Under the pieces are notes generated by a model, which made no database searches, was not told the origin of the DNA, and worked only from the letters and a program-made list of their open reading frames with translations. A stretch of 64,000 nt of DNA from Ophelia neglecta (Eukaryota): NCBI GenBank assembly GCA_965285935.1, contig OZ260662.1, positions 77,128,001 to 77,192,000 of the forward strand, written 5' to 3'. The position numbers and the translations under genes were made by a program. How positions within the stretch are numbered: the first letter of the stretch is position 1; each line of letters opens with the position of its first letter. Of the stretch, positions 1 through 64,000 are shown one piece after another.

Positions 1-1620
1 GGTAACTTCTGACAGAAGCTTGAAGTGTTATAATGGCTCCAACTTTAATGAGATATTGTTTTCTCACACGTCTCATCAACATGGTGGCACGCCATCTATT
101 TTGAATAGTAATGGTAGCTTTTTGTCTGTTGTGATATCTCTTTTTCTCCTGCTTTCCACGAACTAAAGATTGCAAGTAAACTATCTTCTTCTTATTATGT
201 AGGAATTGCTTTCTCAGTTGGTGCATTTTAAACACAGATTGTATTTTAATGGCAGCTTTTATCTTCTGGACCTCTCTCCTTGCCCGCCATCCACGATAAC
301 TTCTTTGTATTGTGAGAGCGGAGTGTTTTATATTTTGGTATTCCGTCTGTTGTATCTTAGTTTTCTTACATCCTCTGTACCAGTTCTGTATAACAAGAGC
401 AGCTACTCTCATGGCTCTGTACTTCACCCGTTGATAGCGGCCCTTGATGTGTGCCTGTAGTTTGATAACTCCGGTTCTTGTTGTAAGGTAGTCCTTTCTG
501 GCTTTCCACATTCTCACCTGTGACTGTATTGTAATAATCCTCTGTCTGGTCATTTGGTATGACAGCACAGCCTTTCTTCTCAGGAGATGAGCTCTGTAAT
601 AATGCTGCAATATAACAGTAGCTGATTTTATTCTCAGGAACTCTCTCCGTTTGATCAAACGTCTAGTATGGGTTTGTATGATCAGAGCGGCAGCCTTGGT
701 TCTTAGATACTGTTGTCTTTGCTTGTATCCTAGGTATGCAGCTTGTATTCTGATTGCAGATCTAACTTTGTGGGCATGTCTTCTAGCAATCCTGCCTCTA
801 ACACCAGACTGAAGTGTTATTATTGCTCCAACTTTAATAAGATATTGTTTTCTCACAAGTCTCATCAACATGGTGGCACGCCACCTGTTTTGAATAGCGA
901 TGGTAGCTTTTTGTATTTTTAGATATATTTTCTTCTCCTGCTTTGCCCTGACTAAAGACTGTAAGTAAACTACCTTCTCCTTTTTATGTAGGAAAGTCTT
1001 CCTCAGTCGGTACATTCTAAATACAGATTGTATTTTAATGGCAGCTTTTATCTTCTTGACTTCTCTCCTTGCCCTCCAACCACGATAACATCTTTGTATT
1101 GTGAGAACGGAGTGTTTTATATTTTGGTATTCCGTCTGTTGTATCTTAGTTATCTTACATCCTCTGTACCAGTTCTGTATAACAAGAGCAGCTACTTTCA
1201 TGGCTCTGTACTTCACCCGTTGATAGCGGCCCTTGATGTGTGCCTGTAGTTTGATAACTCCTGTTCTTGTTGTAAGGTAGTCCTTTCTGGCTTTCCACAT
1301 TCTCACCTGTGACTGTATTGTAATAATCCTCTGTCTGGTCATTTGGTATGACAGCACAGCCTTTCTTCTCAGGAGATGAGCTCTGTAATAATGCTGCAAT
1401 ATAACAGTAGCTGATTTAATTCTCAGGAACTCTCTCCGTTTGATCAAACGTCTAGTATAGGTTTGTATGATCAGAGCTGCGGCCTTTGTTCTCAGATACC
1501 GATGTCTTTGCTTGTATCCTTGGTATGCAGCTTGTATTCTGAGTGCAGACCTAATTTTGCGGGCATGTGTCCTAGCAATCATGCCTCTAATGGCAGACTG
1601 GATAATAATTATAGCTTTTC
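1..1620. repeat. In-frame tandem duplication (period 789 bp = 263 codons) inside the ASPM IQ exon
   Basis: tctcatcaacatggtggcacgcca at 71 and 860; gtgcctgtag ends at 460 and 1249; long near-identical stretches. Confidence 0.9.
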
Positions 1621-4600: not shown

Positions 4601-4771
4601 TTCTTTTGTCTCTTTGTAGGCCCTGTAATGACTCTGGATACTGTAGGCTGCCATGTGCAGAATGCCGAGATCCCTACGAGCCAGGAAACCTCTCCACACT
4701 GATTGAATGACAGTGGCATACGCACATTGGTACATCCAGTTCTGTCTGTGTAGGAAACCTCGTACATGAGC
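1..4771 (-). CDS. ASPM: ASPM giant IQ-repeat exon (over 4.7 kb; absent from the ORF track because it runs off the edge)
   Basis: Acceptor TACAG|GCTCATGTA at 4771; the frame read at both ends gives [10 protein letters not shown]...SVRSY, with recurring IQ-type motifs; internal ~789-bp duplication. Confidence 0.9.
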
Positions 4772-19700: not shown

Positions 19701-22700
19701 ATTTGTAAACATTTTCATTTTTTCAGTTGACCCCGGTAATTATTTAGCACTATTCCATTTGAACTGGTGTTTATGTCGGGGTGGGGTTCACATAGTTTTT
19801 TATTTCAGTAGATTCAACCATGTACTAAAAAGGTACAATGAGGAGGCTACATTTATTTTATATATATAACTTGTGGAGGGCAAGGGGTGAAAAAATGTAT
19901 CCAACACCCCTTCTCTGGCATTTGAAAGAAACCGCCCTTAGAATATACCAGAACATATAGGGAAAATTAAAATATAGAAAGAAAAATAGTATATTATCAT
20001 TTCTGTTTAACTTCCAGAAGAGGGGAATAAAATACCTAAATCTGCATGAATTTTCCTGTCTTTTCTTACAGCCAGACCATTCCTTTCAATTTCTTTCTCT
20101 ATTTTCTGAATTATTTTCACATTTTCTTCATTTTGGAAGAGAGAGCAAGCCTTGTGTCTCAGCCTGTTCAGCCTGCGTTTGGCAGTGTACATTTTGAAGG
20201 AGAGATATTCCTTGGTAGGAGCTAGGGTGACATCATGTGGCGGACCATCCACAAACAACCGTCCTGCATCAACTGAAGTCAAATTAAAAATGTTATATTT
20301 GAGATAGATTGTTTTCCAATTTCAACATCCTACAAATTTTGAAAAACATTTTTGTAGCATCACAATTCCTCTCCCATTCAAAGAAGAAAATCAGTTTTTC
20401 TAGCATTTGGAAAGGTACATTTTTGATGCTATTCAGTGACGTGAACTCCCTTTGTTGCTGGGTCATGATTTGGTGTTCTTTGGTTTTTCAGGCAATTTTT
20501 ATATGGTACAATATAGGTAAATCACAGGTAAAGTTCCTTGAATAATAAATTTTACACAACCTGGTGATGACTCGGGCCACTCTTTGGTGTATCGAATTAA
20601 TTAATCAATATAACCTGTCTAACTTACTATCAGTTGTCTTTTAGGATACTAATTGAGAGGTGGCCGTTTTGTAGAAAAGAATGCATTATTGAATATAAAA
20701 GCATTTGATTGGGCACTCACTTCTTTTAGGCTTGACAGCTTCAAAGTACTCATCTGGAGGTGTCAGGATGAAGTTGAGCCACCTGACAAATCCTCGCTCT
20801 TCCTTCTCCATCCATCTCTCGTCATAATACATGTTTTTTCCAGCAAACGGCATGGGATGTTTGGGTAGTGCTGAACACAGTCAGAAAATAAATGTTTTTT
20901 TATCACTTGTTTCTTAGAAAATACATTGTCCTTTATGAACTGAAAGTTAAGTTTTATTGCATTCAGCATATATAGAGAAAAAACACAGATTTAAATGAAG
21001 AAAAATTCACCTGTTGGCTTCTTAGACAGGACCAGTTTTGACTGAGCAAGACCCTGAGCCAGAGATTTGGACTTTCCCTTTGATGATGGGGTGGGTTTGG
21101 GTGGGCCACAAGATTTACTCATCCCAGCAAGAGCAGCTAAAAGAAAATTAGTGATATAATATAAATGCCTCACGACAATATGCAATGTCTTTCGTTACTT
21201 AAAAAAGGCAATACATGAAGCAAATGATTTTTTTCTCACATACCTTGCCTCCTAAGTTGTTGCGTTCTGTTCAAGCTCCTGTCATTTTGAGAGCTTTGCA
21301 GTGGCCTGCTCTTTAAATCTCCCCCTTTCTGACCTTCTATGCCAGACCGCAACTTCTTTACATCACTGCCGCTGGCATATTTCCTTCTGGGAACCGCCCT
21401 GTCCATGCTGTGAGGTCTTTTCTTACAGGCGAGAGGGTCTGTGGTGTTTAGAACAGCACGGCAAGCAGATAGGCTCACCCGCGGCTGAGCCTGTCTCCAG
21501 GGTTTCTGGTATCTTCTGCCACTCTTGTCATCATCAGGGTCATTCACCTGTGCGGTTTTGTAAGGGCTCCTACTGGGACGAGCGTTAAAAGAAATTCCAG
21601 TGTGAGGGACAGGTTGGTTAATTAAAGAATGATCCCTTTTACGTGGACTATGGTACAAGATGTCTTCAGAAAATACCTCATCTGTTATGACTTTATTTTT
21701 CTTTTCTATAGTAGCCAGCATGTCTGGTGTAGCATTGGCAACATTGTCACTTGCAATATGAGCCTCTTCAGCATTGCCAGAGAACAGTTCCTTCTTAGAT
21801 TTCTGGGTGGCTGGAGGTCTTCTGTGCAGGATATCAGGCTTTGACTTGGTCACTGTAAGGGAACTCACTCTTTTGGGTTCAGGGGAATCAGGCATTTCTT
21901 GGACCAATGACCCCCGTGCTTGAGGTGCAGACGACTTTATTACTGAATCCAGTGATTGAGGGAAAGCAGAAACATTAACAATTGGGCTTGCCATGTGAGA
22001 TTTCTGGAACATTCCCTTGTCAGTTGGTGGTGGAGCGGTCAGAGGAGTTGAAGAAAACCAGTTCTTAAGTTCATGCTTAACACTTGTCAGCTGGTCCACC
22101 ACCTCTTGGTGGCTGAAGGACTCGCTCAGCAGGGAAGTTGGACTCTCATCTAGCTCAGCAGGTTTGGTGAGCTGTGACCTACCAACAACTTCAGCCTGGG
22201 CAGGTTCATGGCTACCAGGGTCTAGGTTTAGTGGTGTTTGAATTGTTTCATCAGTGTTACCCAACACTTTTTGTACTTGGTATTGGACTGGGGTGAAACT
22301 TAAAGTTTTCTTTGCCTCATTTTCCATTTCTTCTTCTGGTACACTGGTATCAGAGGGTTCAGGAGAGCTTCTATCTTCTGTATCAGCTTCAAGACTATCA
22401 ACACTGAAACGCTCTTCCTTCCTCAGTTTTCTGATGGCTGGTATAAATGGTACTGATTCCATATATTCAGGGAGTAAATCAGATCTCTGAATTATGTCAT
22501 CAATAGTTTCAACTTGAGGGCTTTCATTTATTGTGATTTGGGGGGAAAGAGAAAACTCTGATCCATCTTGCTTTGGCTTTGAGAAACCCCTTAGGAATTT
22601 TGCAAATTCTTGCTGTTGGTAGACCACATCTGTTCCTGACTGTGAGTGAGATACAGTGGTACTGACAGTGTGTTGAAAGGAATCTGTCACCACTGTTGGC

Positions 22701-25700
22701 TCAATGCTGTGAACTTCGACCGAGTTAGGCCTGGAAGCCAGAACTTGCTCAGCTATGAGATTGACAGTTTCTGTGACAACCTTTGCTCTGTCGTCCTGTA
22801 TACATTCAGGTGAAGTTACCGTTATGTCAGCAGTTGAGTAGACATTGACAATCTCGGAGGTTGTAACAGTCTCAAAAATTTCGACTTTTTCTATTCTCTC
22901 TTCAAATATTGTGTCACAGTCGCTCTTCCATTCTGAGGTCTGATCAGGGACATAGCCCACAGAATCCTCAAAGATTTCATCCTCCAAGTCAGAGTTGACA
23001 GGGCTTCTGTATGGTGTGCTAGCCGGTGTCATATATGTAGCTGTGGTCACACTGTCCCCATCATTGGCATTGGGGTCAGATGATTCCAGTTGCTTTGCCA
23101 GCTTCTGTAGCGAATCATTCAAAACTTCTTGGTGAGTTAGTCCAGGATGGGAAAGAAGAGCCCCTTTAAGCTGCATTCCTCTGAATATGTCACCAACAAC
23201 ATCATTGGAATTATTGGTTAGAGATGACTTTTCATAAACTGGACTTTGCGCATTAAGACTATCTTGGTGTTCACATGGTTTAGGGCTCAAACTGCTGTTT
23301 AGTTTAGTGTAAGTACCGGAGCGTCTTAGGTTAGACCTGTCTGGGGTTTCAGAGTGGGAAATACTTAAGTTGTGAACAGTGGTGTCATCAGAGAAATGCA
23401 CAGCATGAGCTGGGTGTTTTCTGACCGGAGAGGCGGAACGAGCCACATTGGTGTCTGAGCTATGGACCTCTATGATGGGAGTATTACTACAAGTGTTCTC
23501 GTTCTTGTGAAAGGTGCTTCGTCTGATAGGTGTGCTGGGCAGATCAGGATCGTCCTTCTCAAAGGTAGATCTACTGGCCATCTCATCAGCTTCATCGATG
23601 GACTTAGGGGGTGTGAATACATGGCGTGTGTGGGCTGAATGTTTTGGTTGCAGCATGGAAAGCACTGATGGTTCTTTTTTGTCATATGTTGTCCTCCTCA
23701 GGGGTGATTGAGGCAGGGTAGGGTCTTCTTTTATAAATGTGGTACGTCTCGGGGGAGTGCCTGGAATTGCGGGGTCATCAAACTTAAAGAATTCATGTGC
23801 AGGTGCAGATTTTCTGTCCAGACTTGGACATTTTTCAGCAACATTAAAAGTTTTGTATGCTGGAGATTCAATAAATGTGGATGAACATTTTGGAATTGGA
23901 GTCTGCATGACCGAGCCATCTTCTTTGAAATAAGTTGAAGCTGGCTCAATGTTGCCAACAATGTGGGTTGAACTTAAGACCGACACATTGGTGTCTTCTT
24001 TATACCCAAATGTAGTCAAGTTGTTCATACCAGAGTTGCTAGGACCAAAAGCATGTCGCACAGGGACTTTTGGTATGGCCCACTCGGGGACATTCTTACT
24101 AGGCTGCAATACTCGAGTAGCATCAGGTGCTGAAGTGGAGCATTGCAAGTACTCAACTGTAATGTTTTCTTTAATCTCTTCATGTATTATATCCTGTTTT
24201 CTTCTCTCTACACTCTCTGATTTTGTCACATATACTTCAACAGTGGCGTCCACTAGAGGCTTCTTGGGCTTCCTATTCGATGTATTGTCATTGTTTTTAG
24301 GAGACAGAGGTGACCTATGATTCTGAGGTTTGTTTCCTGTGATCCTGGTAGCTGGTGCCTTCTTCTGGGCTAGAGCGGCCCTTCTGATCCCTCGTGACTG
24401 AAAGGGAGAAAATAGCACATGACATTCCTCATAACTTTTTTACTACTGGATACATCCAAGCAGAAATGATGGTACTGCATGGAAAATGTTCCTTTTGATA
24501 TGATAATAATTACTCAAGGGGACAGGTATATAATTTAAAGCTCCCCCCTCATCCCCCCCCCTCCAGCTCAAAAAATTCTATTAATTGGTAAGGACAAATA
24601 GCAAATTGGAATTTGTTTATTGATAACTGCCTATGTCTTCAGATGGAGAGGTTGTAGTTATAAAGCCAGCATGGAGCAGCAACGATTATAGACATGAACT
24701 ACTTCACAACAAGCTTTTAAACAACTTTTATACAAACACATCACCACTCTGTGGCACCATGTATTTGTTATGTGAATTGACAAACCAAATAAGTTAAAAG
24801 CCTGGACAGGCACAACAATGTTCTTTCATTTAAATGAATCTATTTTGAGAGTGGTATTTTCATGAAGTGGCTAGTGACATAATTCACAGATGTACATGTA
24901 TTAGTAGAGATATACTACACTATCCGATACTACTACTGATCAAATCAATATTGATATATCGGTATCGTCATCATTTTATAAGTAAAAGAAAATATTAAAC
25001 TACTTGAACACGAAACTTTTAGGACCCAAAGGGCTGAATTTAGAACCTAGGGCATAGAAATTTGTGGAGATTTACAAAATTTTGCCCTTAAATTCACTGC
25101 CTTTGTTTTAGCTCAAATGGAGCATTTTTTCAATGTAATGAAAAAAATGCTAATATGGCTTGACTAGATCCACTTTTCCCTTTTCTGATGAACATCTTAA
25201 ACCAATACTAGTATTAGTTAGAAAATATTGTTATCAGTATTGTTCAGATGTCAGACTGGTCAGTATTATGATGTTTAATCAAAACTATGAACAGCTCTAT
25301 TCCCTTGAAACACTACCTTTGACACCAAAGTCTTTAGAAATTATTGGTAACATTTTGGTGTCTGTATATCTTAGTATCTGTATTGTTTTACAAGTATCAT
25401 TATCCAAATATGGTTCATTTCAAATCAAACGGTATGCAGCTTTATGTATATTAAAGTATGTATATATATCAGTACATGCCTTTTTTGGCTTGGGTGGTTG
25501 TTCAGCCACTCCAAACAAGATTGTTTGTAGTCTATACACTCCATCAACCTGAAACAAAGCATTCAAACAATGAATATCAGCGCAGTAGAGAACTTCAATA
25601 TGGCCACATATAAATACTGTCACCTGTTCAGCTTAGTCTAAAATAATGTTGATACATTGGTTATATGCGATTGCAAATCAGGCTCTCATGATTTATGACT

Positions 25701-26916
25701 TGGTTGTGGGGTACTATTAATTAGAATCCTAGCTATATTCAGGCCAGGAACAGCGGATCAAAACAAAAAAGCCTAACTTTGGTTCCGTCTGTGTCTAGAA
25801 TAACTTGTTATAGCGGGATCATACTACTTATGCCAGATGTATTTTTCGTCATCAAGTTGTTCTGTCACAAGTGATGCAAGCAGGTTAAAAAAAACTTTAA
25901 AAATGCATTCAAATTGGCATTTTTGCCTAAGTATTTAAGGATAATGTAACAAGATGTTTAGGACTAAATAGGTATCAGTCATATATTGAATAACAAAGAA
26001 AAATGTGTGGCTATTCACAGGATTTATGGAACAAACGTATCAATTTTATATGTAAACAAAAAAAAATTAAATTCCTGTTACTAATGTACATATAACTTTG
26101 AAAGGGATCAATGAAAGGGCAGGGTTCTTGTTTTAAAAATAATTAGCTCAGATATCCTCTTTTCATTGTTTAATATTATGCTGGCATATTTCATAATTTG
26201 ATCTTTATATGAATATTAAAATAACCTTAAAAATGACAAGTTCTCTACAGTTCTGCTGCTCCAGAGGATCCCAGGTGAGTGTGAGAATCTGCTCATCCCC
26301 AGCATCCACACTGAATTCCACTAGATCAATGTGAAAGTTCTTGTTGAATGGGAATCTACAATAGAATGGTTTTCACAATAGAAATTTGTTTCTTAAAATC
26401 TAATGAATTTGATAATCAATGTTTTTCACCAGTATGAGAATTGTCAGTCAAACCCAGCTGGTCAGACATTTTATATTTGAACTGTTCAGAGAAGTTTCTT
26501 TATGAAAACATGTGGAATAATAAAACAGATTTCTATTTATTGCTTGCCTGATTTATATTTTTATTGTATTGGTTGCTTACTATACATGTATAACTTTTGA
26601 CTGAAAAGATAAATATGTTAATTTCTTACTTTTCAACAATAACTTCTTGGCAGCAGTCATGAGGATTTCTAACTTTGAGATGCCTTATTTTAGTTTTCCC
26701 AACTCTTATCTTTCCAAAGTCTATGCGAGGGGACTTGGAAAAGTGAGTAAGCTCCAAGACTTCAATCTCTTCATGAGGATCAACTGGGTTATGTTTTGTT
26801 TTATTCTCCACAGCAATTTCAAAACGCAGGGAGTTGTTGGGTTCAAACCAAGAACGTCGTCGTTTCTTGGGTATCTCCCCACCTCCAGGAGACTGGGAGA
26901 AAGCGGGGGAAGACAT
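1..26916 (-). CDS. ASPM: Abnormal spindle-like microcephaly-associated protein (ASPM/asp); multi-exon, 3' end beyond the left window edge
   Basis: Exons with consistent phases: 26916-26630, 26355-26226, 25548-25480, 24397-21244, 21136-21011, 20870-20721, 20272-20036, 19677-19610, 19299-19158, 18958-18828, 18433-18258, 17683-17538, 7341-7141, 6932-6820, 6291-6096, 5890-5817, 5696-5496, 5090-4896, 4771-<1. N-terminal ASH domain ([21 protein letters not shown]), [30 protein letters not shown] domains ([62 protein letters not shown]), then many IQ motifs. Confidence 0.96.
8055..8170. repeat. 22-bp minisatellite (CTGACCTGAGAACACCAATGGT, about 5 copies)
   Basis: Directly visible tandem units next to the edge of array 1. 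Confidence 0.85.
8495..8529 (-). terminator. Histone-type 3' stem-loop plus downstream element (copy 1)
   Basis: Minus strand reads GGTCCTCTTCAGGGCC (8529-8514), ACCAC ATCCTC, CAAGAGAG (8502-8495). Confidence 0.75.
8575..8997 (-). CDS. Uncharacterised 140-aa predicted helical protein, array 1 copy 1
   Basis: Intact 423-bp ORF, ACCATG context, conserved in 10 copies with no indels. Confidence 0.75.
   Translation of the reverse strand: MSMPTDNPWDTVSVFLDELSDVYSSLQTERLSPKSQLSAQYILNTTRQAGAIVKKIQRLFSLVRLLYQKCHHLNKKLEDVIFNGELKHYYPVWNKLQVYESERCVHSSSLLKLAGQVDRLMEKITTSHQTFLSQYPWLFG
10979..10994 (-). terminator. Histone-type 3' stem-loop (copy 2)
   Basis: GGTCCTCTTCAGGGCC, then CTCAC...CCAGAGGG (variant flanks). 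Confidence 0.65.
11040..11462 (-). CDS. Uncharacterised 140-aa protein, array 1 copy 2
   Basis: Intact ORF, near-identical to the other copies. Confidence 0.75.
   Translation of the reverse strand: MSMPTDNPWDTVSVFLDELSDVYSSLQTERLSPKSQLSAQYILNTTRQAGAIVKKIQRLFSLVRLLYQKCRHLNKKLEDVIFNGELKHYYPVWNKLQVYESERCVHSSSLLKLAGQVDRLMEKITTSHKTFVSQYPWLFG
13437..13452 (-). terminator. Histone-type 3' stem-loop (copy 3)
   Basis: GGTCCTCTTCAGGGCC, then CTCAC...CCAGAGGG. Confidence 0.65.
13499..13921 (-). CDS. Uncharacterised 140-aa protein, array 1 copy 3
   Basis: Intact ORF, near-identical to the other copies. Confidence 0.75.
   Translation of the reverse strand: MSMPADNPWDTVSVFLDELSDVYSSLQTERLSPKSQLSAQYILNTTRQAGAIVKKIHRLFSLVRLLYQKCHHLNKKLEDVIFNGELKHYYPVWNKLQVYESERCVHSSSLLKLAGQVDRLMEKITTSHQTFLSQYPRLFG
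15108..15123 (-). terminator. Histone-type 3' stem-loop (copy 4)
   Basis: GGTCCTCTTCAGGGCC ACCAC...CAAGGGGG. Confidence 0.7.
15169..15591 (-). CDS. Uncharacterised 140-aa protein, array 1 copy 4
   Basis: Intact ORF, near-identical to the other copies. Confidence 0.75.
   Translation of the reverse strand: MSMPADNPWDTVSVFLDELSDVYSSLQTERLSPKSQLSTQYILNTTRQAGTIVKKIQRLFSLVRLLYQKCHHLNKKLEDVIFNGELKHYYPVWNKLQVYESERCVHSSSLLKLAGQVDRLMEKITTSHQTFLSQYPRLFG
21244..24397 (-). CDS. ASPM: ASPM large low-complexity exon (3154 bp, S/T-P rich)
   Basis: 1060-aa ORF in the track; TTTCAG acceptor at 24398 and CAAG|GTATGT donor at 21243; phases fit the flanking exons. Confidence 0.9.
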
Positions 26917-51210: not shown

Positions 51211-52748
51211 CTGAAACAAAAATAAAGTATAAAATTGTTTATCAAAGAATGACACACATCTTTCAGCATAACATGAACCGTTGATAATAAATCTTGAGTT
51301 TCTAAGCACAAATATTTCACTTTATTAATGCACATCCTAAACATATTTTTAATATGTTTATATACAATACTTAATTTGTCCTTAAGCAATAACATAAATA
51401 TTAGTTGGAAACCAATTGTGTAAAAACTAGACTGAAGTTGATGCCAACTGGCATTGATGGGAATGCCTCCACAAAGGGAAGCAGACGGCCCTTTACTGAC
51501 TTGTAGATCAAGGTAAGGGGGGGGGGGGGGGAGCACACCTCACCAAATGATCAAGGTCAAGTTAAGGACTCCAAATTAGCCTTCAATACATTTGTATTGA
51601 ACAATCAATCCTTAAAGAGGCTCTTAAAATTTTGACTGCATGTAGTATAAATAATATTATGGACATATCATCAATGAAAATGGGAATCTTATTAATTGGA
51701 TGTCCTTCATTTTAAAATCACATGTATCAAAGGTACTGACCAATATTAATTTATGAATGATTTGACTAACTGGCCATATATTTAGCCACTTGTCTTATCT
51801 TTCAGACTTGAGTAAATTTTGGACAGCAATTCTCATGCAAACGGGTGAACAATTTTTGTTTGAAAACTCAAAGCCCCCAAATTTTTATTCTCATCACACA
51901 AGGCCAGGTCCCCTTAGGCATGAGGCAGTTGGTTAACCCATTTGCTATTATCGGTGGCATATGTACATTAAGCATGAATATTGGTGTCAAGGAGGTATGG
52001 GAGTAGAAGACAATCTCATGTTTCAAATTATGAATCTTAAGTTGGATGCAGGCATCTGGTTGCAGATAAGGCTGGATGCAAATAGGGCTTAAAGAAAATA
52101 GAAGTTTACAAAAGGTACATCCAGTAGAGATAACCATAAGCCTGATGGTGGCTTTGGAATATTATGACTTTTGCTTGATATACATATTCTGTCAGATTTC
52201 CCTGACCATGATTAGGAAGGAATCATTGAGCGCTGGATATGTTTTGCTTCTTTGGAAAATACTGCTAACACTATTATTTAAAAGGCAAAATAAAGAAATG
52301 AAATGTGGAAAATGACCATTTCATTACAGCGAGAAGTCCAGTACTTTAAATCTACCCAACGAGTCCATTGCCATCATGTTCAGCAGATTCTCCATGGATA
52401 TACTATTGAAATATTCACACTCAGTTGCTTCAATTTGAAACTTTTACCACTGAATATAGAGTCCAGTGGCTTCCTTCAATCAGTTGTGCCTTCTTGAAGT
52501 CCCTTGATGTAAACAAACCACAATGTTTGTGGCTCTATCATCTGTTTGATGTGAAGGTGCCACAAACATTGCTTACTGCTAATTGGTATTCATCAGAAAG
52601 GTGTAAAAGTGCTGCTCTTTCCTGATTGGTTGGTTAATAAATAGAGGCATCAGACAGACATTTCTTGGTGAGCTGGTTTTGGGAGTAAGGGCAAACACAT
52701 TTTGGCTCACCAACTTGTCACAATCCTCTTACCAGATCTCTACTCACC

Positions 52749-53171
52749 ATGAGCATGCCTGCTGACAACCCTTGGGACACAGTGTCCGTCTTCCTGGATG
52801 AGCTGTCTGATGTGTACAGCAGTCTGCAGACAGAGAGGCTGAGTCCCAAGTCTCAGCTCTCAGCTCAGTATATACTGAACACCACTCGACAAGCTGGAGC
52901 CATTGTCAAAAAGATCCAGAGGCTTTTCAGCCTTGTGCGTCTGCTATACCAGAAGTGTCGTCATCTCAACAAGAAACTGGAAGATGTGATATTTAACGGT
53001 GAACTCAAGCACTACTACCCTGTGTGGAACAAGCTTCAGGTGTATGAGAGTGAACGCTGTGTGCACTCCTCCTCCCTCCTCAAGTTGGCTGGCCAAGTAG
53101 ACAGATTGATGGAGAAGATCACCACCTCCCACCAGACCTTCCTCTCCCAGTATCCCCGGCTGTTTGGCTGA
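52749..53171 (+). CDS. Uncharacterised 140-aa protein, array 2 copy A
   Basis: Intact 423-bp ORF. Confidence 0.75.
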   Translation: MSMPADNPWDTVSVFLDELSDVYSSLQTERLSPKSQLSAQYILNTTRQAGAIVKKIQRLFSLVRLLYQKCRHLNKKLEDVIFNGELKHYYPVWNKLQVYESERCVHSSSLLKLAGQVDRLMEKITTSHQTFLSQYPRLFG

Positions 53172-53217
53172 GACCCCTGGCAGTCTCACATCCATGTCTT
53201 ATGGGTGTACATTCACT

Positions 53218-53252
53218 GGTCCTCTTCAGGACCATCACATCCTCCAAGAGAG
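53218..53252 (+). terminator. Histone-type 3' stem-loop plus downstream element (copy A)
   Basis: GGTCCTCTTCAGGACC (53218-53233), ATCAC ATCCTC, CAAGAGAG (53245-53252). Confidence 0.75.
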
Positions 53253-54850
53253 TGATACTCATACAATCAATGCTAGCAACATTGAGAAACCAATTGATTC
53301 TAAATTAACTCTTGTCTATTATCATTCTTCTGTAAATGATAATCCTTAAAATTTGAAACATGACATTAATGATCACTGGAAAACAGGTTTCCAAATGTAG
53401 ATAGATGATAGATAACCCCTTTACCAGCATTTAATGTAATACAATACAACTATCACCATGTGTCCAAATTAAAGGCTAAGCAATTTTTTTCATAACCATT
53501 GTTCTCAGGCTTAATTTACATTTCTTTGCAACTCAAATCAATAATTTCCAGATCCTGTGATTGGGGTGGAATGCCAAAGTGGCAACAACTATCATATGAC
53601 AGTTTCTTGACAACATAACCCATTCAATATATTACGTTTAATTGTTATTCACAACTTTTCACACCTTCCTGGTCTTTGATGTGATTCAATGCCTTAAATA
53701 AATCATCAGATGTGAAAAAAAAAACCATGATGTATATATCACACCCTTCTTGTGACTGTTAGTAATCCATGGAAATTCCAATACAATTGTTCTCAGGATA
53801 TAAACATTATGTCCTAATCAAAGATGTGGCTGAACTTCAGAACTGCCTTTGATGTTAAAAGTGTGATTTATGACTATTTATTTGTAAATATCAAATAATA
53901 ATAATCAAATGTCCTGTTCCTTTATTTTCTAAGTCCATTCTTAAATGCATTTGGTTATGTTTGGGTTTGAGTTGTATTGTGGTTGAACGGTTTAGGCATT
54001 TCATCTGGCATAATATCACTCAATGGGCCTTTCTTGGGGAGAGCTGGTCAGCTACTCTAGAGTGGATGGTCACCTCAGTACTAAGGGGATAGTGGCCATC
54101 ATTCTCTGTTCTGGGGGCTAATTTTATAACTATACTCTTAAAAGTTTGTACATATGAGAGTTCCCTTTTTAGTAGGACGTCACATCTTTGAATACCTGCA
54201 GCTTGCTGGCAGTTAACAATGCCAACTACCAAGGATAATCACTTGAAATGACAACTAGTATATATAGTAGCTGAGTTGCTTATGGATAAGTTGGTGAAAC
54301 TCATGGCAAGGGTTTCCCAGTTAGCCATGGTGTTTGGCTTGGCAGACTCAGTAAAATAGAATATTTTCTCTTTAATATTATTTAAAAGGCAAAATAAAGA
54401 AATGAAATGTGGAAAATGAATATACTATTACAGCGAGTAGTCCAGTACTTGAAATCTACTCAACGAGCCCATTGCCAACATGCTCAGCAGATTCTCCTTG
54501 GTTAGACTATTCAACTATTCACACTCAGTTGCTTCAATCTGAAACTTTTACCACAGAATATAGAGTCTTGTGGCTTCCTTCAATCAATTGTGCCTTCTTG
54601 AAGTCCTTTGATGTAAACAAACCACAATGTTTGTGGCTCTATTATGTTTGAAGTTAAGTTGCCACAAACATTGCTTACTGCTAATTGGTATCCATCAGAA
54701 AGGTGTAAAAGTGCTGCTCTTTCCTGATTGGTTGGTTAATAATCAGAGGCATCAGACAGACCTTTCTTGGTGAGCTGGTTTTGAGAGGTAGGGCAAACAC
54801 ATTTTGGCTTCCCAACTTGTCACACTCCTGTTACCAGATCTCTACTCATC

Positions 54851-55273
54851 ATGAGCATGCCTGCTGACAACCCTTGGGACACAGTGTCCGTCTTCCTGGA
54901 TGAGCTGTCTGATGTGTACAACAGTCTGCAGACAGAGAGGCTGAGTCCCAAGTCTCAGCTCTCAGCTCAGTATATACTGAACACCACTCGACAAGCTGGA
55001 ACCATTGTCAAAAAGATCCAGAGGCTTTTCAGCCTTGTGCGTCTGCTATACCAGAAGTGTCGTCATCTCAACAAGCAACTGGAAGATGTGATATTTAACG
55101 GTGAACTCAAGCACTACTACCCTGTGTGGAACAAGCTTCAGGTGTACGAGAGTGAACGCTGCGTGCACTCCTCCTCCCTTCTCAAATTGGCTGGCCAAGT
55201 AGACAGATTGATGGAGAAGATCACCACCTCCCACCAGACCTTCCTCTCCCAGTATCCCCGGCTGTTTGGCTGA
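54851..55273 (+). CDS. Uncharacterised 140-aa protein, array 2 copy B
   Basis: Intact 423-bp ORF. Confidence 0.75.
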   Translation: MSMPADNPWDTVSVFLDELSDVYNSLQTERLSPKSQLSAQYILNTTRQAGTIVKKIQRLFSLVRLLYQKCRHLNKQLEDVIFNGELKHYYPVWNKLQVYESERCVHSSSLLKLAGQVDRLMEKITTSHQTFLSQYPRLFG

Positions 55274-55319
55274 GACCCCTGGCAGTCTCACATCCATGTC
55301 TTATGGGTGTACATTCACT

Positions 55320-55354
55320 GGTCCTCTTCAGGACCATCACATCCTCCAAGAGAG
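55320..55354 (+). terminator. Histone-type 3' stem-loop plus downstream element (copy B)
   Basis: Identical to copy A. Confidence 0.75.
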
Positions 55355-56927
55355 TGATACTCATACAATCAATGCTAGCAACATTGAGAAACCAATTGAT
55401 TCTAAATTAACTCTTGTCTATTATCATTCTTCTGTAAATGATAATCCTTAAAATATGAAACATGACATTAATGATCACTGGAAAATAGGTTTCCAAATGT
55501 AGATAGATGATAGATAACCCCTTATCAGCATTTAATGTAATACAATACAACTATCACCATGTGTCCAAATTAAAGGCTAAGCAATTTTTTTCATAAACAT
55601 TGTTCTCAGGCTTAATTTACATTTCTTTGCAACTCAAATCAATAATTTCCAGATCCTGTGATTGGGATGGAATGCCAAAGTGGCAACAACTATCATATGA
55701 CAGTTTCTTGACAACATAACCCATTCAATATATTATGTTTAATTGTTATTCACAACTTGGTCTTTGATGTGATTCAATGCCTTAAATAAATCATCAGATG
55801 TGAAAAAAACCATGATGTATATATCACACCCTTCTTGTGACTGTTAGTAATCTATGGAAATTCCAATACAATTGTTCTCAGGATATAAACATTATGCCCT
55901 AATCAAAGATGTGGCTGAACTTCCGAACTGCCTTTGAGGTTAAAAGTGTGATTTATGACTATTTCTTTGTAAATATCAAATAATAATAATCAAATATCCT
56001 GTTCCTTTATTTTCTAAGTCCATTTTTAAATGCATTCAGTTATGTTTGGGTTTGAGTTCGATTGTGGTTGAACGGTTTAGGCATTTCATCTGGCATAATA
56101 TCACTCAATGGGCCTTTCTAGTTGAGAGCTGGTCAGCTACTCTAAGAGTGGATGGTCACCTCAGTACTAAGGGGATAGTGGCCATCATTCTCTGTTCTGG
56201 GGGCTAATTTTATCACTGTTTTTAAAAAGTTTGTATATTTGAGAGTTCCCTTTTTAGTAGGACGTCACATCTTTGAATACCTGCAGCTTCCTTGCAGTTA
56301 ACAATGCCAACTACCAAGGATAATCACTTGAGATGATTACTAGTATATATAGTAGCTGAGTTGCTTACAGATAAGTTGGCAAAACTCATCACAAGGGTTT
56401 CCCAATTAGCCATGTTGTTAGGCTTGGCTGACTCAGTAGAAGAGAGTATTCTCTGTTTAATATTATTTAAAAGGCAAAATAAAGAAATGAAATGTGGAAA
56501 ATGACCATTTCATTACAGCGAGTAGTCCAGTACTTGAAATCTACCCAACGAGTCCATTGCCATCATGTTCAGCAGATTCTCCTTGGTTAGACTATTCACA
56601 CTCAGTTGCTTCAATTTGAAACTCTTCCCACAGAATAAAGAGTCTTGTGGCTTCCTTCAATCAATTGTGCCTTCTTGAAGTCCTTTGATGTAAACAAACC
56701 ACAATGTTTGTGGCTCTATTATGTTTGAAGTTAAGTTGCCACAAACATTGCTTACTGCTAATTGGTATCCATCAGAAAGGTGTAAAAGTGCTGCTCTTTC
56801 CTGATTGGTTGGTTAATAATCAGAGGCATCAGACAGACCTTTCTTGGTGAGCTGGTTTTGAGAGGTAGGGCAAACACATTTTGGCTTCCCAACTTGTCAC
56901 ACTCCTGTTACCAGATCTCTACTCATC

Positions 56928-57350
56928 ATGAGCATGCCTGCTGACAACCCTTGGGACACAGTGTCCATCTTCCTGGATGAGCTGTCTGATGTGTACAACA
57001 GTCTGCAGACAGAGAGGCTGAGTCCCAAGTCTCAGCTCTCAGCTCAGTATATACTGAACACCACTCGACAAGCTGGAACCATTGTCAAAAAGATCCAGAG
57101 GCTTTTCAGCCTTGTGCGTCTGCTATACCAGAAGTGTCGTCATCTCAACAAGCAACTGGAAGATGTGATATTTAACGGTGAACTCAAGCACTACTACCCT
57201 GTGTGGAACAAGCTTCAGGTGTACGAGAGTGAACGCTGCGTGCACTCCTCCTCCCTTCTCAAATTGGCTGGCCAAGTAGACAGATTGATGGAGAAGATCA
57301 CCACCTCCCACCAGACCTTCCTCTCCCAGTATCCCCGGCTGTTTGGCTGA
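56928..57350 (+). CDS. Uncharacterised 140-aa protein, array 2 copy C
   Basis: Intact 423-bp ORF. Confidence 0.75.
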   Translation: MSMPADNPWDTVSIFLDELSDVYNSLQTERLSPKSQLSAQYILNTTRQAGTIVKKIQRLFSLVRLLYQKCRHLNKQLEDVIFNGELKHYYPVWNKLQVYESERCVHSSSLLKLAGQVDRLMEKITTSHQTFLSQYPRLFG

Positions 57351-57396
57351 GACCCCTGGCAGTCTCACATCCATGTCTTATGGGTGTACATTCACT

Positions 57397-57431
57397 GGTC
57401 CTCTTCAGGACCATCACATCCTCCAAGAGAG
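57397..57431 (+). terminator. Histone-type 3' stem-loop plus downstream element (copy C)
   Basis: Identical to copy A. Confidence 0.75.
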
Positions 57432-59004
57432 TGATACTCATACAATCAATGCTAGCAACATTGAGAAACCAATTGATTCTAAATTAACTCTTGTCTATTA
57501 TCATTCTTCTGTAAATGATAATCCTTAAAATATGAAACATGACATTAATGATCACTGGAAAATAGGTTTCCAAATGTAGATAGATGATAGATAACCCCTT
57601 ATCAGCATTTAATGTAATACAATACAACTATCACCATGTGTCCAAATTAAAGGCTAAGCAATTTTTTTCATAAACATTGTTCTCAGGCTTAATTTACATT
57701 TCTTTGCAACTCAAATCAATAATTTCCAGATCCTGTGATTGGGATGGAATGCCAAAGTGGCAACAACTATCATATGACAGTTTCTTGACAACATAACCCA
57801 TTCAATATATTATGTTTAATTGTTATTCACAACTTGGTCTTTGATGTGATTCAATGCCTTAAATAAATCATCAGATGTGAAAAAAACCATGATGTATATA
57901 TCACACCCTTCTTGTGACTGTTAGTAATCTATGGAAATTCCAATACAATTGTTCTCAGGATATAAACATTATGCCCTAATCAAAGATGTGGCTGAACTTC
58001 CGAACTGCCTTTGAGGTTAAAAGTGTGATTTATGACTATTTCTTTGTAAATATCAAATAATAATAATCAAATATCCTGTTCCTTTATTTTCTAAGTCCAT
58101 TTTTAAATGCATTCAGTTATGTTTGGGTTTGAGTTCGATTGTGGTTGAACGGTTTAGGCATTTCATCTGGCATAATATCACTCAATGGGCCTTTCTAGTT
58201 GAGAGCTGGTCAGCTACTCTAAGAGTGGATGGTCACCTCAGTACTAAGGGGATAGTGGCCATCATTCTCTGTTCTGGGGGCTAATTTTATCACTGTTTTT
58301 AAAAAGTTTGTATATTTGAGAGTTCCCTTTTTAGTAGGACGTCACATCTTTGAATACCTGCAGCTTCCTTGCAGTTAACAATGCCAACTACCAAGGATAA
58401 TCACTTGAGATGATTACTAGTATATATAGTAGCTGAGTTGCTTACAGATAAGTTGGCAAAACTCATCACAAGGGTTTCCCAATTAGCCATGTTGTTAGGC
58501 TTGGCTAACTCAGTAGAAGAGAGTATTCTCTGTTTAATATTATTTAAAAGGCAAAATAAAGAAATGAAATGTGGAAAATGACCATTTCATTACAGCGAGT
58601 AGTCCAGTACTTGAAATCTACCCAACGAGTCCATTGCCATCATGTTCAGCAGATTCTCCTTGGTTAGACTATTCACACTCAGTTGCTTCAATTTGAAACT
58701 CTTCCCACAGAATATAGAGTCTTGTGGCTTCCTTCAATCAATTGTGCCTTCTTGAAGTCCTTTGATGTAAACAAACCACAATGTTTGTGGCTCTATTATG
58801 TTTGAAGTTAAGTTGCCACAAACATTGCTTACTGCTAATTGGTATCCATCAGAAAGGTGTAAAAGTGCTGCTCTTTCCTGATTGGTTGGTTAATAATCAG
58901 AGGCATCAGACAGACCTTTCTTGGTGAGCTGGTTTTGAGAGGTAGGGCAAACACATTTTGGCTTCCCAACTTGTCACACTCCTGTTACCAGATCTCTACT
59001 CATC

Positions 59005-59427
59005 ATGAGCATGCCTGCTGACAACCCTTGGGACACAGTGTCCGTCTTCCTGGATGAGCTGTCTGATGTGTACAACAGTCTGCAGACAGAGAGGCTGAGT
59101 CCCAAGTCTCAGCTCTCAGCTCAGTATATACTGAACACCACTCGACAAGCTGGAACCATTGTCAAAAAGATCCAGAGGCTTTTCAGCCTTGTGCGTCTGC
59201 TATACCAGAAGTGTCGTCATCTCAACAAGCAACTGGAAGATGTGATATTTAACGGTGAACTCAAGCACTACTACCCTGTGTGGAACAAGCTTCAGGTGTA
59301 CGAGAGTGAACGCTGCGTGCACTCCTCCTCCCTTCTCAAATTGGCTGGCCAAGTAGACAGATTGATGGAGAAGATCACCACCTCCCACCAGACCTTCCTC
59401 TCCCAGTATCCCCGGCTGTTTGGCTGA
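59005..59427 (+). CDS. Uncharacterised 140-aa protein, array 2 copy D
   Basis: Intact 423-bp ORF. Confidence 0.75.
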   Translation: MSMPADNPWDTVSVFLDELSDVYNSLQTERLSPKSQLSAQYILNTTRQAGTIVKKIQRLFSLVRLLYQKCRHLNKQLEDVIFNGELKHYYPVWNKLQVYESERCVHSSSLLKLAGQVDRLMEKITTSHQTFLSQYPRLFG

Positions 59428-59473
59428 GACCCCTGGCAGTCTCACATCCATGTCTTATGGGTGTACATTCACT

Positions 59474-59508
59474 GGTCCTCTTCAGGACCATCACATCCTC
59501 CAAGAGAG
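59474..59508 (+). terminator. Histone-type 3' stem-loop plus downstream element (copy D)
   Basis: Identical to copy A. Confidence 0.75.
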
Positions 59509-61082
59509 TGATACTCATACAATCAATGCTAGCAACATTGAGAAACCAATTGATTCTAAATTAACTCTTGTCTATTATCATTCTTCTGTAAATGATAATC
59601 CTTAAAATATGAAACATGACATTAATGATCACTGGAAAACAGGTTTCCAAATGTAGATAGATGATAGATAACCCCTTTACCAGCATTTAATGTAATACAA
59701 TACAACTATCACCATGTGTCCAAATTAAAGGCTAAGCAATTTTTTTCATAAACATTGTTCTCAGGCTTAATTTACATTTCTTTGCAACTCAAATCAATAA
59801 TTTCCAGATCCTGTGATTGGGATGGAATGCCAAAGTGGCAACAACTATCATATGACAGTTTCTTGACAACATAACCCATTCAATATATTATGTTTAATTG
59901 TTATTCACAACTTGGTCTTTGATGTGATTCAATGCCTTAAATAAATCATCAGATGTGAAAAAAACCATGATGTATATATCACACCCTTCTTGTGACTGTT
60001 AGTAATCCATGGAAATTCCAATACAATTGTTCTCAGGATATAAACATTATGTCCTAATCAAAGATGTGGCTGAACTTCAAAACTGCCTTTGATGTTAAAA
60101 GTGTGATTTATGACTATTTATTTGTAAATATCAAATAATAATAATCAAATGTCCTGTTCCTTTATTTTCTAAGTCCATTCTTAAATGCATTTGGTTATGT
60201 TTGGGTTTGAGTTGTATTGTGGTTGAACGGTTTAGGCATTTCATCTGGCATAATATCACTCAATGGGCCTTTCTTGGGGAGAGCTGGTCAGCTACTCTAG
60301 AGTGGATGGTCACCTCAGTACTAAGGGGATAGTGGCCATCATTCTCTGTTCTGGGGGCTTATTTTATAACTATACTCTTAAAAGTTTGTACATATGAGAG
60401 TTCCCTTTTTAGTAGGAAGGTACAGCTTTGAATACCTGCAGCTTGCTGGCAGTTAACAATGCCAACTACCAAGGATAATCACTTGAAATGACAACTAGTA
60501 TATATAGTAGCTGAGTTGCTTATGGATAAGTTGGTGAAACTCATGGCAAGGGTTTCCCAGTTAGCCATGGTGTTTGGCTTGGCAGACTCAGTAAAATAGA
60601 ATATTTTCTCTTTAATATTATTTAAAAGGCAAAATAAAGAAATGAAATGTGGAAAATGAATATACTATTACAGCGAGTAGTCCAGTACTTGAAATCTACT
60701 CAACGAGCCCATTGCCAACATGCTCAGCAGATTCTCCTTGGTTAGACTATTCAACTATTCACACTCAGTTGCTTCGATCTGAAACTTTTACCACAGAATA
60801 TAGAGTCTTGTGGCTTCCTTCAATCAATTGTGCCTTCTTGAAGTCCTTTGATGTAAACAAACCACAATGTTTGTGGCTCTATTATGTTTGAAGTTAAGTT
60901 GCCACAAACATTGCTTACTGCTAATTGGTATCCATCAGAAAGGTGTAAAAGTGCTGCTCTTTCCTGATTGGTTGGTTAATAATCAGAGGCATCAGTCAGA
61001 AGTGAGCTGGTTTTGAGAGGTAGGGCAAACACATTTTGGCTTACCAACTTGTCACAATCCTGTTACCAGATCTCTACTCATC

Positions 61083-61505
61083 ATGAGCATGCCTGCTGAC
61101 AACCCTTGGGACACAGTGTCCGTCTTCCTGGATGAGCTGTCTGATGTGTACAACAGTCTGCAGACAGAGAGGCTGAGTCCCAAGTCTCAGCTCTCAGCTC
61201 AGTATATACTGAACACCACTCGACAAGCTGGAACCATTGTCAAAAAGATCCAGAGGCTTTTCAGCCTTGTGCGTCTGCTATACCAGAAGTGTCGTCATCT
61301 CAACAAGCAACTGGAAGATGTGATATTTAACGGTGAACTCAAGCACTACTACCCTGTGTGGAACAAGCTTCAGGTGTACGAGAGTGAACGCTGCGTGCAC
61401 TCCTCCTCCCTTCTCAAATTGGCTGGCCAAGTAGACAGATTGATGGAGAAGATCACCACCTCCCACCAGACCTTCCTCTCCCAGTATCCCCGGCTGTTTG
61501 GCTGA
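61083..61505 (+). CDS. Uncharacterised 140-aa protein, array 2 copy E
   Basis: Intact 423-bp ORF. Confidence 0.75.
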   Translation: MSMPADNPWDTVSVFLDELSDVYNSLQTERLSPKSQLSAQYILNTTRQAGTIVKKIQRLFSLVRLLYQKCRHLNKQLEDVIFNGELKHYYPVWNKLQVYESERCVHSSSLLKLAGQVDRLMEKITTSHQTFLSQYPRLFG

Positions 61506-61551
61506 GACCCCTGGCAGTCTCACATCCATGTCTTATGGGTGTACATTCACT

Positions 61552-61586
61552 GGTCCTCTTCAGGACCATCACATCCTCCAAGAGAG
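61552..61586 (+). terminator. Histone-type 3' stem-loop plus downstream element (copy E)
   Basis: Identical to copy A. Confidence 0.75.
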
Positions 61587-62019
61587 TGATACTCATACAA
61601 TCAATGCTAGCAACATTGAGAAACCAATTGATTCTAAATTAACTCTTGTCTATTATCATTCTTCTGTAAATGATAATCCTTAAAATATGAAACATGACAT
61701 TAATGATCACTGGAAAACAGGTTTCCAAATGTAGATAGATGATAGATAACCCCTTTACCAGCATTTAATGTAATACAATACAACTATCACCATGTGTCCA
61801 AATTAAAGGCTAAGCAATTTTTTTCATAAACATTGTTCTCAGGCTTAATTTACATTTCTTTGCAACTCAATAATTTCCAGATCCTGTGATTGGGATGGAA
61901 TGCCAAAGTGGCAACAACTATCATATGACAGTTTCTTGACAACATAACCCATTCAATATATTATGTTTAATTGTTATTCACAACTTTTCACACCTTCCTG
62001 GTCTTTGATGAGATTCAAT

Positions 62020-63045
62020 GCCTTAAATAAATCATCAGACGTGAAAAAAAACCATGATGTATATATCACACCCTTCTTGTGACTGTTAGTAATCCATGGA
62101 AATTCCAATACAATTGTTCTCAGGATATAAACATTATGTCCTAATCAAAGATGTGGCTGAACTTCAGAACTGCCTTTGATGTTAAAAGTGTGATTTATGA
62201 CTATTTATTTGTAAATGTGATTTATGACTATTTATTTGTAAATATCAAATAATAATAATCAAATGCCTGTTCCTTTATTTTCTAAGTACATTTTTAAATG
62301 CATTTAGTAATGTTTGGGTTTGAGTTCCATCGTAGTCGAATGTTTTAGGCCTTTCATCTGGCATTTTAATCACTCGCTGGGCCTTTCTTGTGGAGAGCTG
62401 GTCAGCTACTCCAGGGTGGACAGTCAACTCAGTTCTGATGGGATAGTGGCCATCATTATCTGTTCTAGGGGCTAATTTTATCACTTTGTTTTTACAAAGT
62501 TTGTATATTTGAGAGTTCCCTTTTTAGTAGGATGTCACATCTTTGAATACCTGCAGCTTCCTTGCAGTTAACAATGCCAACTACCAAGGATAATCACTTG
62601 AGATGAGTACTAGTATATATAGTAGCTGAGTTGCTTACAGATAAGTTCGTAAAACTCATCACAAGGGTTTCCCAATCTAGCCATGGTGTTAGGCTTGGCT
62701 GACTCAGCAGAAGAGAATATTCTCTGTTTAATATTATTTAAAAGGCAAAATAAAGAAATGAAATGTGGAAAATGACCATTTCATTACAGCGAGTAGTCCA
62801 GTACTTGAAATCTACCCAACAAGTCAATTGCCATCATGTTCAGCAGATTCTCCTTGGTTAGACTATTCACACTCAGTTGCTTCAATTTGAAATTTTCCCA
62901 CAGAATATAGAGTCTAGTGGCTTCCTTCAATCAGTTGTGCCTTCTCAGAGTCCTTTGATGTAAACAAACCACAATGTTTGTGGCTCTATTATCTGTTTGA
63001 AGTAAAGTTGCCACAAACATTGCTTACTGCTAATTGGTATCCATC
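62020..63045 (-). pseudogene. Decayed reading frame in the array spacer, head-to-head with the 140-aa ORF (best-preserved copy; homologous remnants in the other spacers)
   Basis: Successive protein-like fragments broken by stops and frameshifts: [17 protein letters not shown] / [27 protein letters not shown] / WVDFKYWTT / EYSLLLSQPSLTPWLDWETLVMSFTNL / VIKLAPRTDNDGHYPIRTELTVHPGVADQLSTRKAQRVIKMPDERPKTFDYDGTQTQTLLNAFK / [15 protein letters not shown]. Confidence 0.5.
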
Positions 63046-63199
63046 CAAAAGGTGTAAAAGTGCTGCTCTTTCCTGATTGGTTGGTTAATAATCAGAGGCA
63101 TCAGACAGACCTTTCTTCGTGAGCTGGTTACGAGAGGTAGGGCAAACACATTTTGGCTTCCCAACTTGTCACACTCCTGTTACCAGATCTCTACTCACC

Positions 63200-63622
63200 A
63201 TGAGCATGCCTGCTGACAACCCTTGGGACACAGTGTCCGTCTTCCTGGATGAGCTGTCTGATGTGTACAGCAGTCTGCAGACAGAGAGGCTGAGTCCCAA
63301 GTCTCAGCTCTCAGCTCAGTATATACTGAACACCACAAGACAAGCTGGAGCCATTGTCAAAAAGATCCAGAGGCTTTTCAGCCTTGTGCGTCTGCTATAC
63401 CAGAAGTGTCGTCATCTCAACAAGCAACTGGAAGATGTGATATTTAACGGTGAACTCAAGCACTACTACCCTGTGTGGAACAAGCTTCAGGTGTACGAGA
63501 GTGAACGCTGTGTGCACTCCTCCTCCCTCCTCAAGTTGGCTGGCCAAGTGGACAGATTGATGGAGAAGATCACCACCTCCCACCAGACCTTCCTCTCCCA
63601 GTATCCCCGGCTGTTTGGCTGA
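63200..63622 (+). CDS. Uncharacterised 140-aa protein, array 2 copy F
   Basis: Intact ORF from the ATG at 63200 (the track's 167-aa call uses an upstream GTG). Confidence 0.75.
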   Translation: MSMPADNPWDTVSVFLDELSDVYSSLQTERLSPKSQLSAQYILNTTRQAGAIVKKIQRLFSLVRLLYQKCRHLNKQLEDVIFNGELKHYYPVWNKLQVYESERCVHSSSLLKLAGQVDRLMEKITTSHQTFLSQYPRLFG

Positions 63623-63668: not shown

Positions 63669-63703
63669 GGTCCTCTTCAGGACCATCACATCCTCCAAGA
63701 GAG
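63669..63703 (+). terminator. Histone-type 3' stem-loop plus downstream element (copy F)
   Basis: Identical to copy A. Confidence 0.75.
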
Positions 63704-64000
63704 TATTACTCATACAATCAATGCTAGCAACATTGAGAAACCAACTGATTCTAAATTAACTCTGGTCTATTATCATTCTTCTGTAAATGATAATCCTTAA
63801 AATTTGAAACATGACATTAATGATCACTGGAAATCAGGTTTCCAAATGTAGATAGATGATAGATAACCCCTTTACCAGCATTTAATGGAATACAATACAA
63901 TAATCTCCATGTGTCCAAATTAAAGGCTAAGCAATTTTTTTCATTAACATAGTTCTCAGGCTTGATTTACATTTGGCAGCCTCACACCCTATCTCCCGGT

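Follow-up and report, generated by a model that had tools for sequence, protein, structure and literature searches.

Introduction

The closest described counterparts of the genes reported here are the replication-dependent histone genes. According to two papers, no cellular mRNAs other than those of histones are known to be without a poly(A) tail (PMC4604434; PMC10388802), and crosslinking of SLBP in human cells is reported to recover histone targets only (PMC4604434). The literature that we searched, with subscription journals largely outside the search, contained no report of non-histone genes with the histone 3' signal, and a term search of the main text of one further source (10.64898/2026.10.14.759114) gave no match.

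Here we analyze a 64,000-nucleotide stretch of the Ophelia neglecta genome (contig OZ260662.1, positions 77,128,001 to 77,192,000; hereafter the window) that carries ten copies of a gene we call type A. Type A and replication-dependent histone genes have in common a short uninterrupted coding sequence, tandem arrays, head-to-head pairs, and a 16-nt hairpin soon after the stop codon with a downstream element at equal spacing. The type A product is no histone and is predicted to be a long helical hairpin. Thus, type A is histone-like in its working but is not a replication-dependent histone gene. By analogy with histone genes, we consider it fairly likely that the messages of these intact non-histone genes are processed by SLBP and U7 without a poly(A) tail.

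Results

All ten type A open reading frames (ORFs) of the window are 423 bp (140 aa) long and contain neither stop nor indel. An earlier note on this DNA had placed ten intact copies at 52749-63622. Ten intact copies are indeed present; six lie in that interval (the right array) and the other four at 8575-15591 on the reverse strand (the left array). In 10/10 copies a perfect 6-bp stem is found 45-46 nt after the stop. The H3, H4, H2A and H2B genes of O. neglecta end in GGCTCT-TTTC-AGAGCC, followed by five bases and an element of the ATCCTC-NN-AGA type, and the window copies share this layout, with the hairpin followed at equal spacing by a downstream element. Based on a matrix built from 24 histone downstream sequences of O. 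neglecta alone, the ten downstream elements score 5.3-13.9 bits (histones, 5.8-19.9) and fall within the highest-scoring 0.002-0.054% of positions in the window. Rfam Histone3 (RF00032) is the top match at 6/6 right-array copies (25-26.3 bits), and the only other strict hairpin matches in the window are reverse-strand reads of six of the ten. The stem varies by array with pairing kept, U-G in the left array and U-A in the right. AATAAA is absent within 400 nt of the stop in 7/10 copies. Folding of the whole 3' untranslated region (UTR) is unexceptional (z of -2.07, 0.25 and -1.75), with the hairpin present in all three minimum-energy structures. Because hairpin and downstream signal are as in the organism's own histone genes, the messages would likely be cut without gaining a poly(A) tail.

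The conserved unit is larger than the reading frame. Between arrays, type A copies share a block from about -300 to +125 with a mismatch of 0.04-0.13; outside it (beyond -400 and +125) the mismatch is 0.21-0.28, with 6-18 indels per pair. Thus, the whole gene is conserved. Decay of the spacers, as claimed earlier, is seen between the arrays; within the right array, sampled flanks differ by only 0-12%. A conserved block of ~300 bp, likely promoter and 5' UTR, precedes every type A copy and includes an inverted CCAAT box ~127 nt before the ATG. Upstream of every ATG there is also a 68-nt GT...AG stretch, which may be a 5' UTR intron or may lie ahead of the start site. In a type A copy on contig C7 (L011) a change of the GT goes together with deletion of the AG region, a pattern that would suit the loss of a small 5' UTR intron.

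Among the ten coding sequences 33 sites vary, 22 of them synonymous and 11 replacement, with a mean pN/pS of 0.16. The synonymous excess gives a binomial p=1.5e-7 under the assumption of independent sites, which these sites are not fully. All six residue differences named earlier (T/A5, S/N24, A/T51, H/R71, K/Q76, W/R137) are present, together with V/I14, A/T39, Q/H57, Q/K129 and L/V132. We conclude that the type A genes are kept under purifying selection, one of two explanations that had been proposed. The other was gene conversion focused on the ORF. Some homogenisation between arrays is plausible because the between-array synonymous difference is 0.04-0.12 for type A vs 0.18-0.20 for a dead neighbour gene, but the conserved unit is not the ORF alone and takes in the promoter and the 3' signal. 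As in the earlier note, we infer a demand for high dosage.

The dead neighbour is a decayed paralogue, type C, carried in the spacer of 7/10 units on the opposite strand and head-to-head with the type A gene. The remnants are riddled with stops and gaps and, between arrays, show 18-20% difference and 10-15 gaps. Since one and the same repeat holds a dead type C and an intact type A gene, it provides an internal control.

Type A belongs, as one subfamily, to a large superfamily of intronless helical-hairpin genes. The label "orphan" in the earlier note was wrong at the family level, as relatives exist within O. neglecta and in other organisms. Genome-wide, full-length open copies of type A number 29 (10 in the window, 2 on contig C7 and 17 on C1), and two further copies are broken, with identity down to 66%. 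On C1, the head-to-head partners of type A genes are distant paralogues that are themselves intact, types B and C. Type C is also present on C12, and a search with it reached the shorter type D, which has at least 150 matches in the genome (150/150 scored, of 447 candidates), with arrays on several contigs. Profile comparison gives a probability of 96.8% for A vs B/C and of 82.7% for A vs D (E=9.6e-6, 13% identity), the latter modest for coiled coils; kinship between A and D is firmer because the 3' signal is common to both. The C1 type A copies form two opposite, outward-facing arrays (42.87-42.90 Mb and 43.04-43.06 Mb) ~140 kb apart, an arrangement like that of the window. An ORF that interrupts one of them (L056) is presumably gag-like and of retrotransposon origin.

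Head-to-head pairing with a paralogue is probably ancestral, and the partner is dead in the window. A tree built from 48 chosen rows places A and B/C in two distinct groups with good support, and both groups also contain proteins from other records. This points to old paralogues, and the gene pair is probably old as well.

Outside O. neglecta, a sequence search found one relative (44% identity), a profile search 61 representatives and a type D search 189 proteins. The few named relatives, all annotated as "hypothetical", include WAR28903.1 of Mya arenaria and CAG2184358.1 of Mytilus edulis, which bear out the likeness to uncharacterised mollusc proteins suggested in the earlier note, and KAI0240625.1 of Lamellibrachia satsuma and KAK2193122.1 of Ridgeia piscesae among annelids. 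These bivalve and annelid proteins are connected to the superfamily by way of type D, the short form; relative to them, type A adds an N-terminal helix and a W-N motif and is without the acidic tail. The domain occurs twice in the Mya and Mytilus entries, which may be gene models that join tandem copies.

The hairpin signal recurs in every main subfamily, and its canonical histone form is present in subfamilies other than type A. Across the O. neglecta genome, a hairpin with an ATCCTC-type element has 386 matches vs 0 for the reversed pattern. Flanks of distinct family ORFs contain the strict hairpin in 84/104 cases and the relaxed one in 90/104, compared with 2/20,800 and 97/20,800 in shuffle controls. 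Among the 20 flanks that fail the strict search are those of broken copies, of C7 copies whose first pair is altered and of some genes without a hairpin. Out of 35 metagenome loci of other organisms, five with <100 nt of flank were dropped; the strict hairpin was found at 14/30 and the loose one at 18/30, vs 4/192 control windows. The search placed no constraint on loop position 3, and this base is U in 42/42 own and 15/15 outside family sequences. In 45 hairpins picked for pairing, one stem pair alternates between C-G (26) and U-A (19), with U-G at 0 even though wobble was permitted. When 20 chosen loci, mostly picked for having a hairpin, were tested against the Rfam cut-off of 34 bits, five family loci exceeded it; the O. 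neglecta H3 gene scores 34.1. No histone ORF motif adjoins the family gene at any of the 35 outside loci.

The AlphaFold2 model of type A (7-sequence alignment, pLDDT 92) has helices at residues 8-27, 33-83 and 86-134. It bears out the long helical hairpin suggested earlier (the two long helices), predicted to be an antiparallel coiled coil with an additional N-terminal helix and no catalytic motif. The type D model comprises two long helices and an acidic tail. Conservation in the family is concentrated in the two long helices (at positions K55, L59, L62, L66, K76, V98, S101, H106 and S109). Foldseek gave no match at E<=0.001, also among viral structures. The best Z scores in a fold comparison, 12.3 and 11.8, are in the range common for long helices and belong to generic coiled coils, PDB sequence searches gave no convincing relative, and the top ESM Atlas scores (0.80 and 0.81) are leads only. 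A complex prediction for type A with type C, run without alignments, gave no verdict (score 0.00). The Pfam matches of type A and of the family include no histone family.

Several further genes bear the hairpin. Two near-identical His-Me (HNH-type) endonuclease zinc-binding genes of O. neglecta (PF05551, E=8.5e-10; L182:1142-1459, reverse strand, and L234:2404-2784, forward strand) both end in a histone hairpin with canonical loop and a downstream element. From its sequence, the endonuclease is a second, unrelated putative non-histone client of the signal. Three other ORFs with hairpin and element (L235:9484-9951, L235:7789-8085 and L174:5650-6102, all on the reverse strand) match the family profile weakly (E 0.002-0.013 in a small set) and are possibly very distant family members. 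An H1-like gene (L183, G000:C1:30.50 Mb) has SPKR repeats, a lysine-rich tail and a hairpin with loop UCUA; we take its product to resemble a protamine-like sperm protein.

Discussion

In the proposed route, SLBP would bind the type A hairpin, the U7 small nuclear ribonucleoprotein would cut a few bases past the stem, and the product would be a short mRNA without a poly(A) tail. For SLBP, two RNA-binding-domain exons were found at one O. neglecta locus. Compared with histone genes, the family has a more variable loop and 5' flank, far higher protein divergence and a promoter without TATAAA, which occurs upstream in 16/24 histone vs 3/38 family regions of the genome. Most of 52000-55600 is covered by contigs from three sequencing runs of a single sample, which are not informative on expression; none of the sequencing runs listed for the window sequence was of RNA.

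A number of observations weigh against SLBP/U7 processing of type A messages. U7 snRNA did not rise above noise in an Rfam model search of the genome, and a U7 pattern search gave 8 matches vs 4 in the control, none with a good 3' hairpin. The window loop, CUUC, begins with C, where 28/28 own histone sequences have U. The 5' flank of the hairpin is TCACT or TCCCT, without the two adenines that one paper reports as necessary for wild-type SLBP affinity (PMC10388802). Right-array hairpins fall under the Rfam cut-off, and four family loci, including a left-array and a C7 copy, have no Rfam match at E<=1. Conventional signals are also at hand: AATAAA 186-325 nt past the stop in three left-array copies, and ATTAAA near +280-296 in eight copies. 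No canonical TATA box was found in the upstream block, and the GT...AG stretch there is a possible 5' UTR intron. Between loci, dN/dS is 0.42-0.64. Tandem copies are not independent; the 100% pairing of the 45 hairpins is built in by their selection; and 16/30 outside loci are without a strict hairpin.

Some of these points would suit a signal that works in the family but has drifted in the window subfamily, with copies polyadenylated or barely expressed and the hairpin hitch-hiking in converted blocks: the C at loop position 1, the missing 5' adenines and canonical TATA box, the downstream ATTAAA or AATAAA, the sub-threshold Rfam scores and the altered first stem pair of the C7 arrays. Drift fits less well with a stem that varies between arrays without losing a pair, a downstream element still histone-like in score, and between-array conservation that falls just past that element. 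Moreover, the loop of histone hairpins in C. elegans is CTTT (PMC1924863), so a first-position C is not fatal in principle, given a suitable SLBP. On balance we regard drift as unlikely. It is highly improbable that the copies are merely recent duplicates under no selection. Three right-array coding sequences are identical and the right-array units are ~95% alike, as such duplicates would be, but the excess of synonymous over replacement sites (22 vs 11), the stops and gaps that fill type C in the same units, and the 29 open vs two broken copies genome-wide, diverged down to 66% identity, argue for selection.

Two further explanations concern the origin of the genes. Arrays scattered over many contigs, one of them within an ASPM intron, and the like signal of the His-Me endonuclease genes could indicate that the genes are carried by an element, mobile or derived from a virus, which borrowed the histone 3' signal for its own expression. 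This is very unlikely: besides type A, the ORF list of the window has no other ATG-started ORF of at least 100 aa in the repeat units; no relatives were found in viral contigs (peptide-pattern scan), prokaryote genomes or viral structures (E<=0.001), no search dedicated to terminal repeats or target-site duplications being part of this; and the grouping of A and of B/C with proteins from other records points to old paralogues. The protein might instead be a divergent, amplified copy of MED30, which is helical, of similar length and weakly matched by type A (Pfam Med30, PF11315, E=0.0017, 19.2 bits, residues 11-124; 3/7 close members at E<=1). However, the score is below the gathering cut-off of 28.1, and the match is not carried by the family (2/54 members at E<=0.1). 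MED30 itself is a canonical intron-containing gene elsewhere in O. neglecta, and the family profile compared with its middle exon (56 aa only) gave a probability of 0.7%. A MED30 origin is thus unsupported, and we give it hardly any credence.

Expression of the type A genes might be tied to DNA replication or to rapid embryonic or germline division, and their arrays, like those of histone genes, might supply the product in a burst; we consider the chances of this to be about even. That the protein is an adaptor binding other proteins and needed in bulk beside new histones is a weak and rather doubtful guess, made because of the histone-like gene design alone. More broadly, we lean slightly towards the view that mRNAs without poly(A) tails exist in a second class, made by molluscs, annelids and their kin. 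It would consist of hundreds of arrayed non-histone helical-hairpin genes in ancient head-to-head pairs, run by SLBP and U7 with replication and largely invisible to poly(A)-based sequencing and annotation, and other genes, such as the His-Me endonucleases, would have joined the route. If true, a conserved non-histone family would break the exclusivity of the histone route, an abundant gene class that escapes annotation based on poly(A) would come to light, and a protein family so far uncharacterised, with a likely link to cell proliferation, would be named. For the study of SLBP specificity, the hairpins offer a ready series of natural variants: UUUC, UAUC, UCUC, UGUC and CUUC. One paper reportedly dealt with SLBP specificity for loop position 1.

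Genomic setting and other features of the window

The coordinates of the type A genes and their surroundings are collected in Table 1.

Table 1 Positions of type A genes, 3' signals, paralogue remnants and the host gene in the window
Feature	Position	Strand	Basis
Type A ORF, right array copy 1	52749..53171	+	ORF list, copy alignment
Type A ORF, right array copy 2	54851..55273	+	ORF list, copy alignment
Type A ORF, right array copy 3	56928..57350	+	ORF list, copy alignment
Type A ORF, right array copy 4	59005..59427	+	ORF list, copy alignment
Type A ORF, right array copy 5	61083..61505	+	ORF list, copy alignment
Type A ORF, right array copy 6	63200..63622	+	ORF list, copy alignment
Type A ORF, left array, within ASPM intron	8575..8997	-	ORF list, copy alignment, exon mapping
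Type A ORF, left array	11040..11462	-	ORF list, copy alignment
Type A ORF, left array	13499..13921	-	ORF list, copy alignment
Type A ORF, left array	15169..15591	-	ORF list, copy alignment
Stem-loop (53218-53233, loop CUUC) and downstream element	53218..53254	+	Rfam, strict pattern, histone-only matrix
Stem-loop and downstream element	55320..55356	+	Rfam, strict pattern, histone-only matrix
Stem-loop and downstream element	57397..57433	+	Rfam, strict pattern, histone-only matrix
Stem-loop and downstream element	59474..59510	+	Rfam, strict pattern, histone-only matrix
Stem-loop and downstream element	61552..61588	+	Rfam, strict pattern, histone-only matrix
Stem-loop and downstream element	63669..63705	+	Rfam, strict pattern, histone-only matrix
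Stem-loop and downstream element	8493..8529	-	Combined pattern, strict hairpin, histone-only matrix
Stem-loop and downstream element	10958..10994	-	Combined pattern, strict hairpin, histone-only matrix
Stem-loop and downstream element	13416..13452	-	Combined pattern, strict hairpin, histone-only matrix
Stem-loop and weakest downstream element of the ten	15087..15123	-	Combined pattern, strict hairpin, histone-only matrix
ORF-less 3' UTR fragment, start; stem-loop 13 nt past window end (L059)	63975..64000	+	
Upstream block of ~300 bp, conserved; likely promoter with 5' UTR	52449..52748 (approximate)	+	Copy alignment
Type C remnant, head-to-head with next type A gene	54047..54355	-	
Type C remnant	56132..56443	-	
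Type C remnant	58209..58520	-	
Type C remnant	60287..60595	-	
Type C remnant	62401..62714	-	
Type C remnant, left array	16161..16325	+	
Short type C remnant, left array	14412..14505	+	
ASPM-type host gene of left array	2..26916	-	Pfam on exons
ASPM exon, ASH	26629-26916	-	Pfam-confirmed
ASPM exon, CH	6079-6291	-	Pfam-confirmed
ASPM exon, IQ	2-4735	-	Pfam-confirmed

The right array is closed by an ORF-less fragment with hairpin and element (63975-64000, continuing at L059:1-50), whose sequence is of the left-array type. The left array sits between two open frames, 17524-17721 and 7082-7399, on the same strand as ASPM. Neither has a Pfam match; by position and likeness we take both to be ASPM exons. 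Four cleavage-type signals on the ASPM strand lie inside an ASPM intron (window 7400-17500) and, if used on the host transcript, would cut the ASPM message before the IQ exon.

5S rRNA genes occur close to a family gene in one contig from outside (L193:364-482) and close to an H3 gene in O. neglecta (L133:2553-2666). An isolated Med30-like piece (L034, G000:C9:13850103-13850243) contains an internal stop and is perhaps a pseudogene fragment. Within the window, the ASPM IQ exon contains an internal duplication of ~790 bp at 91% identity (1-1616), and a tandem repeat of 179-215 bp occupies 35476-36414.

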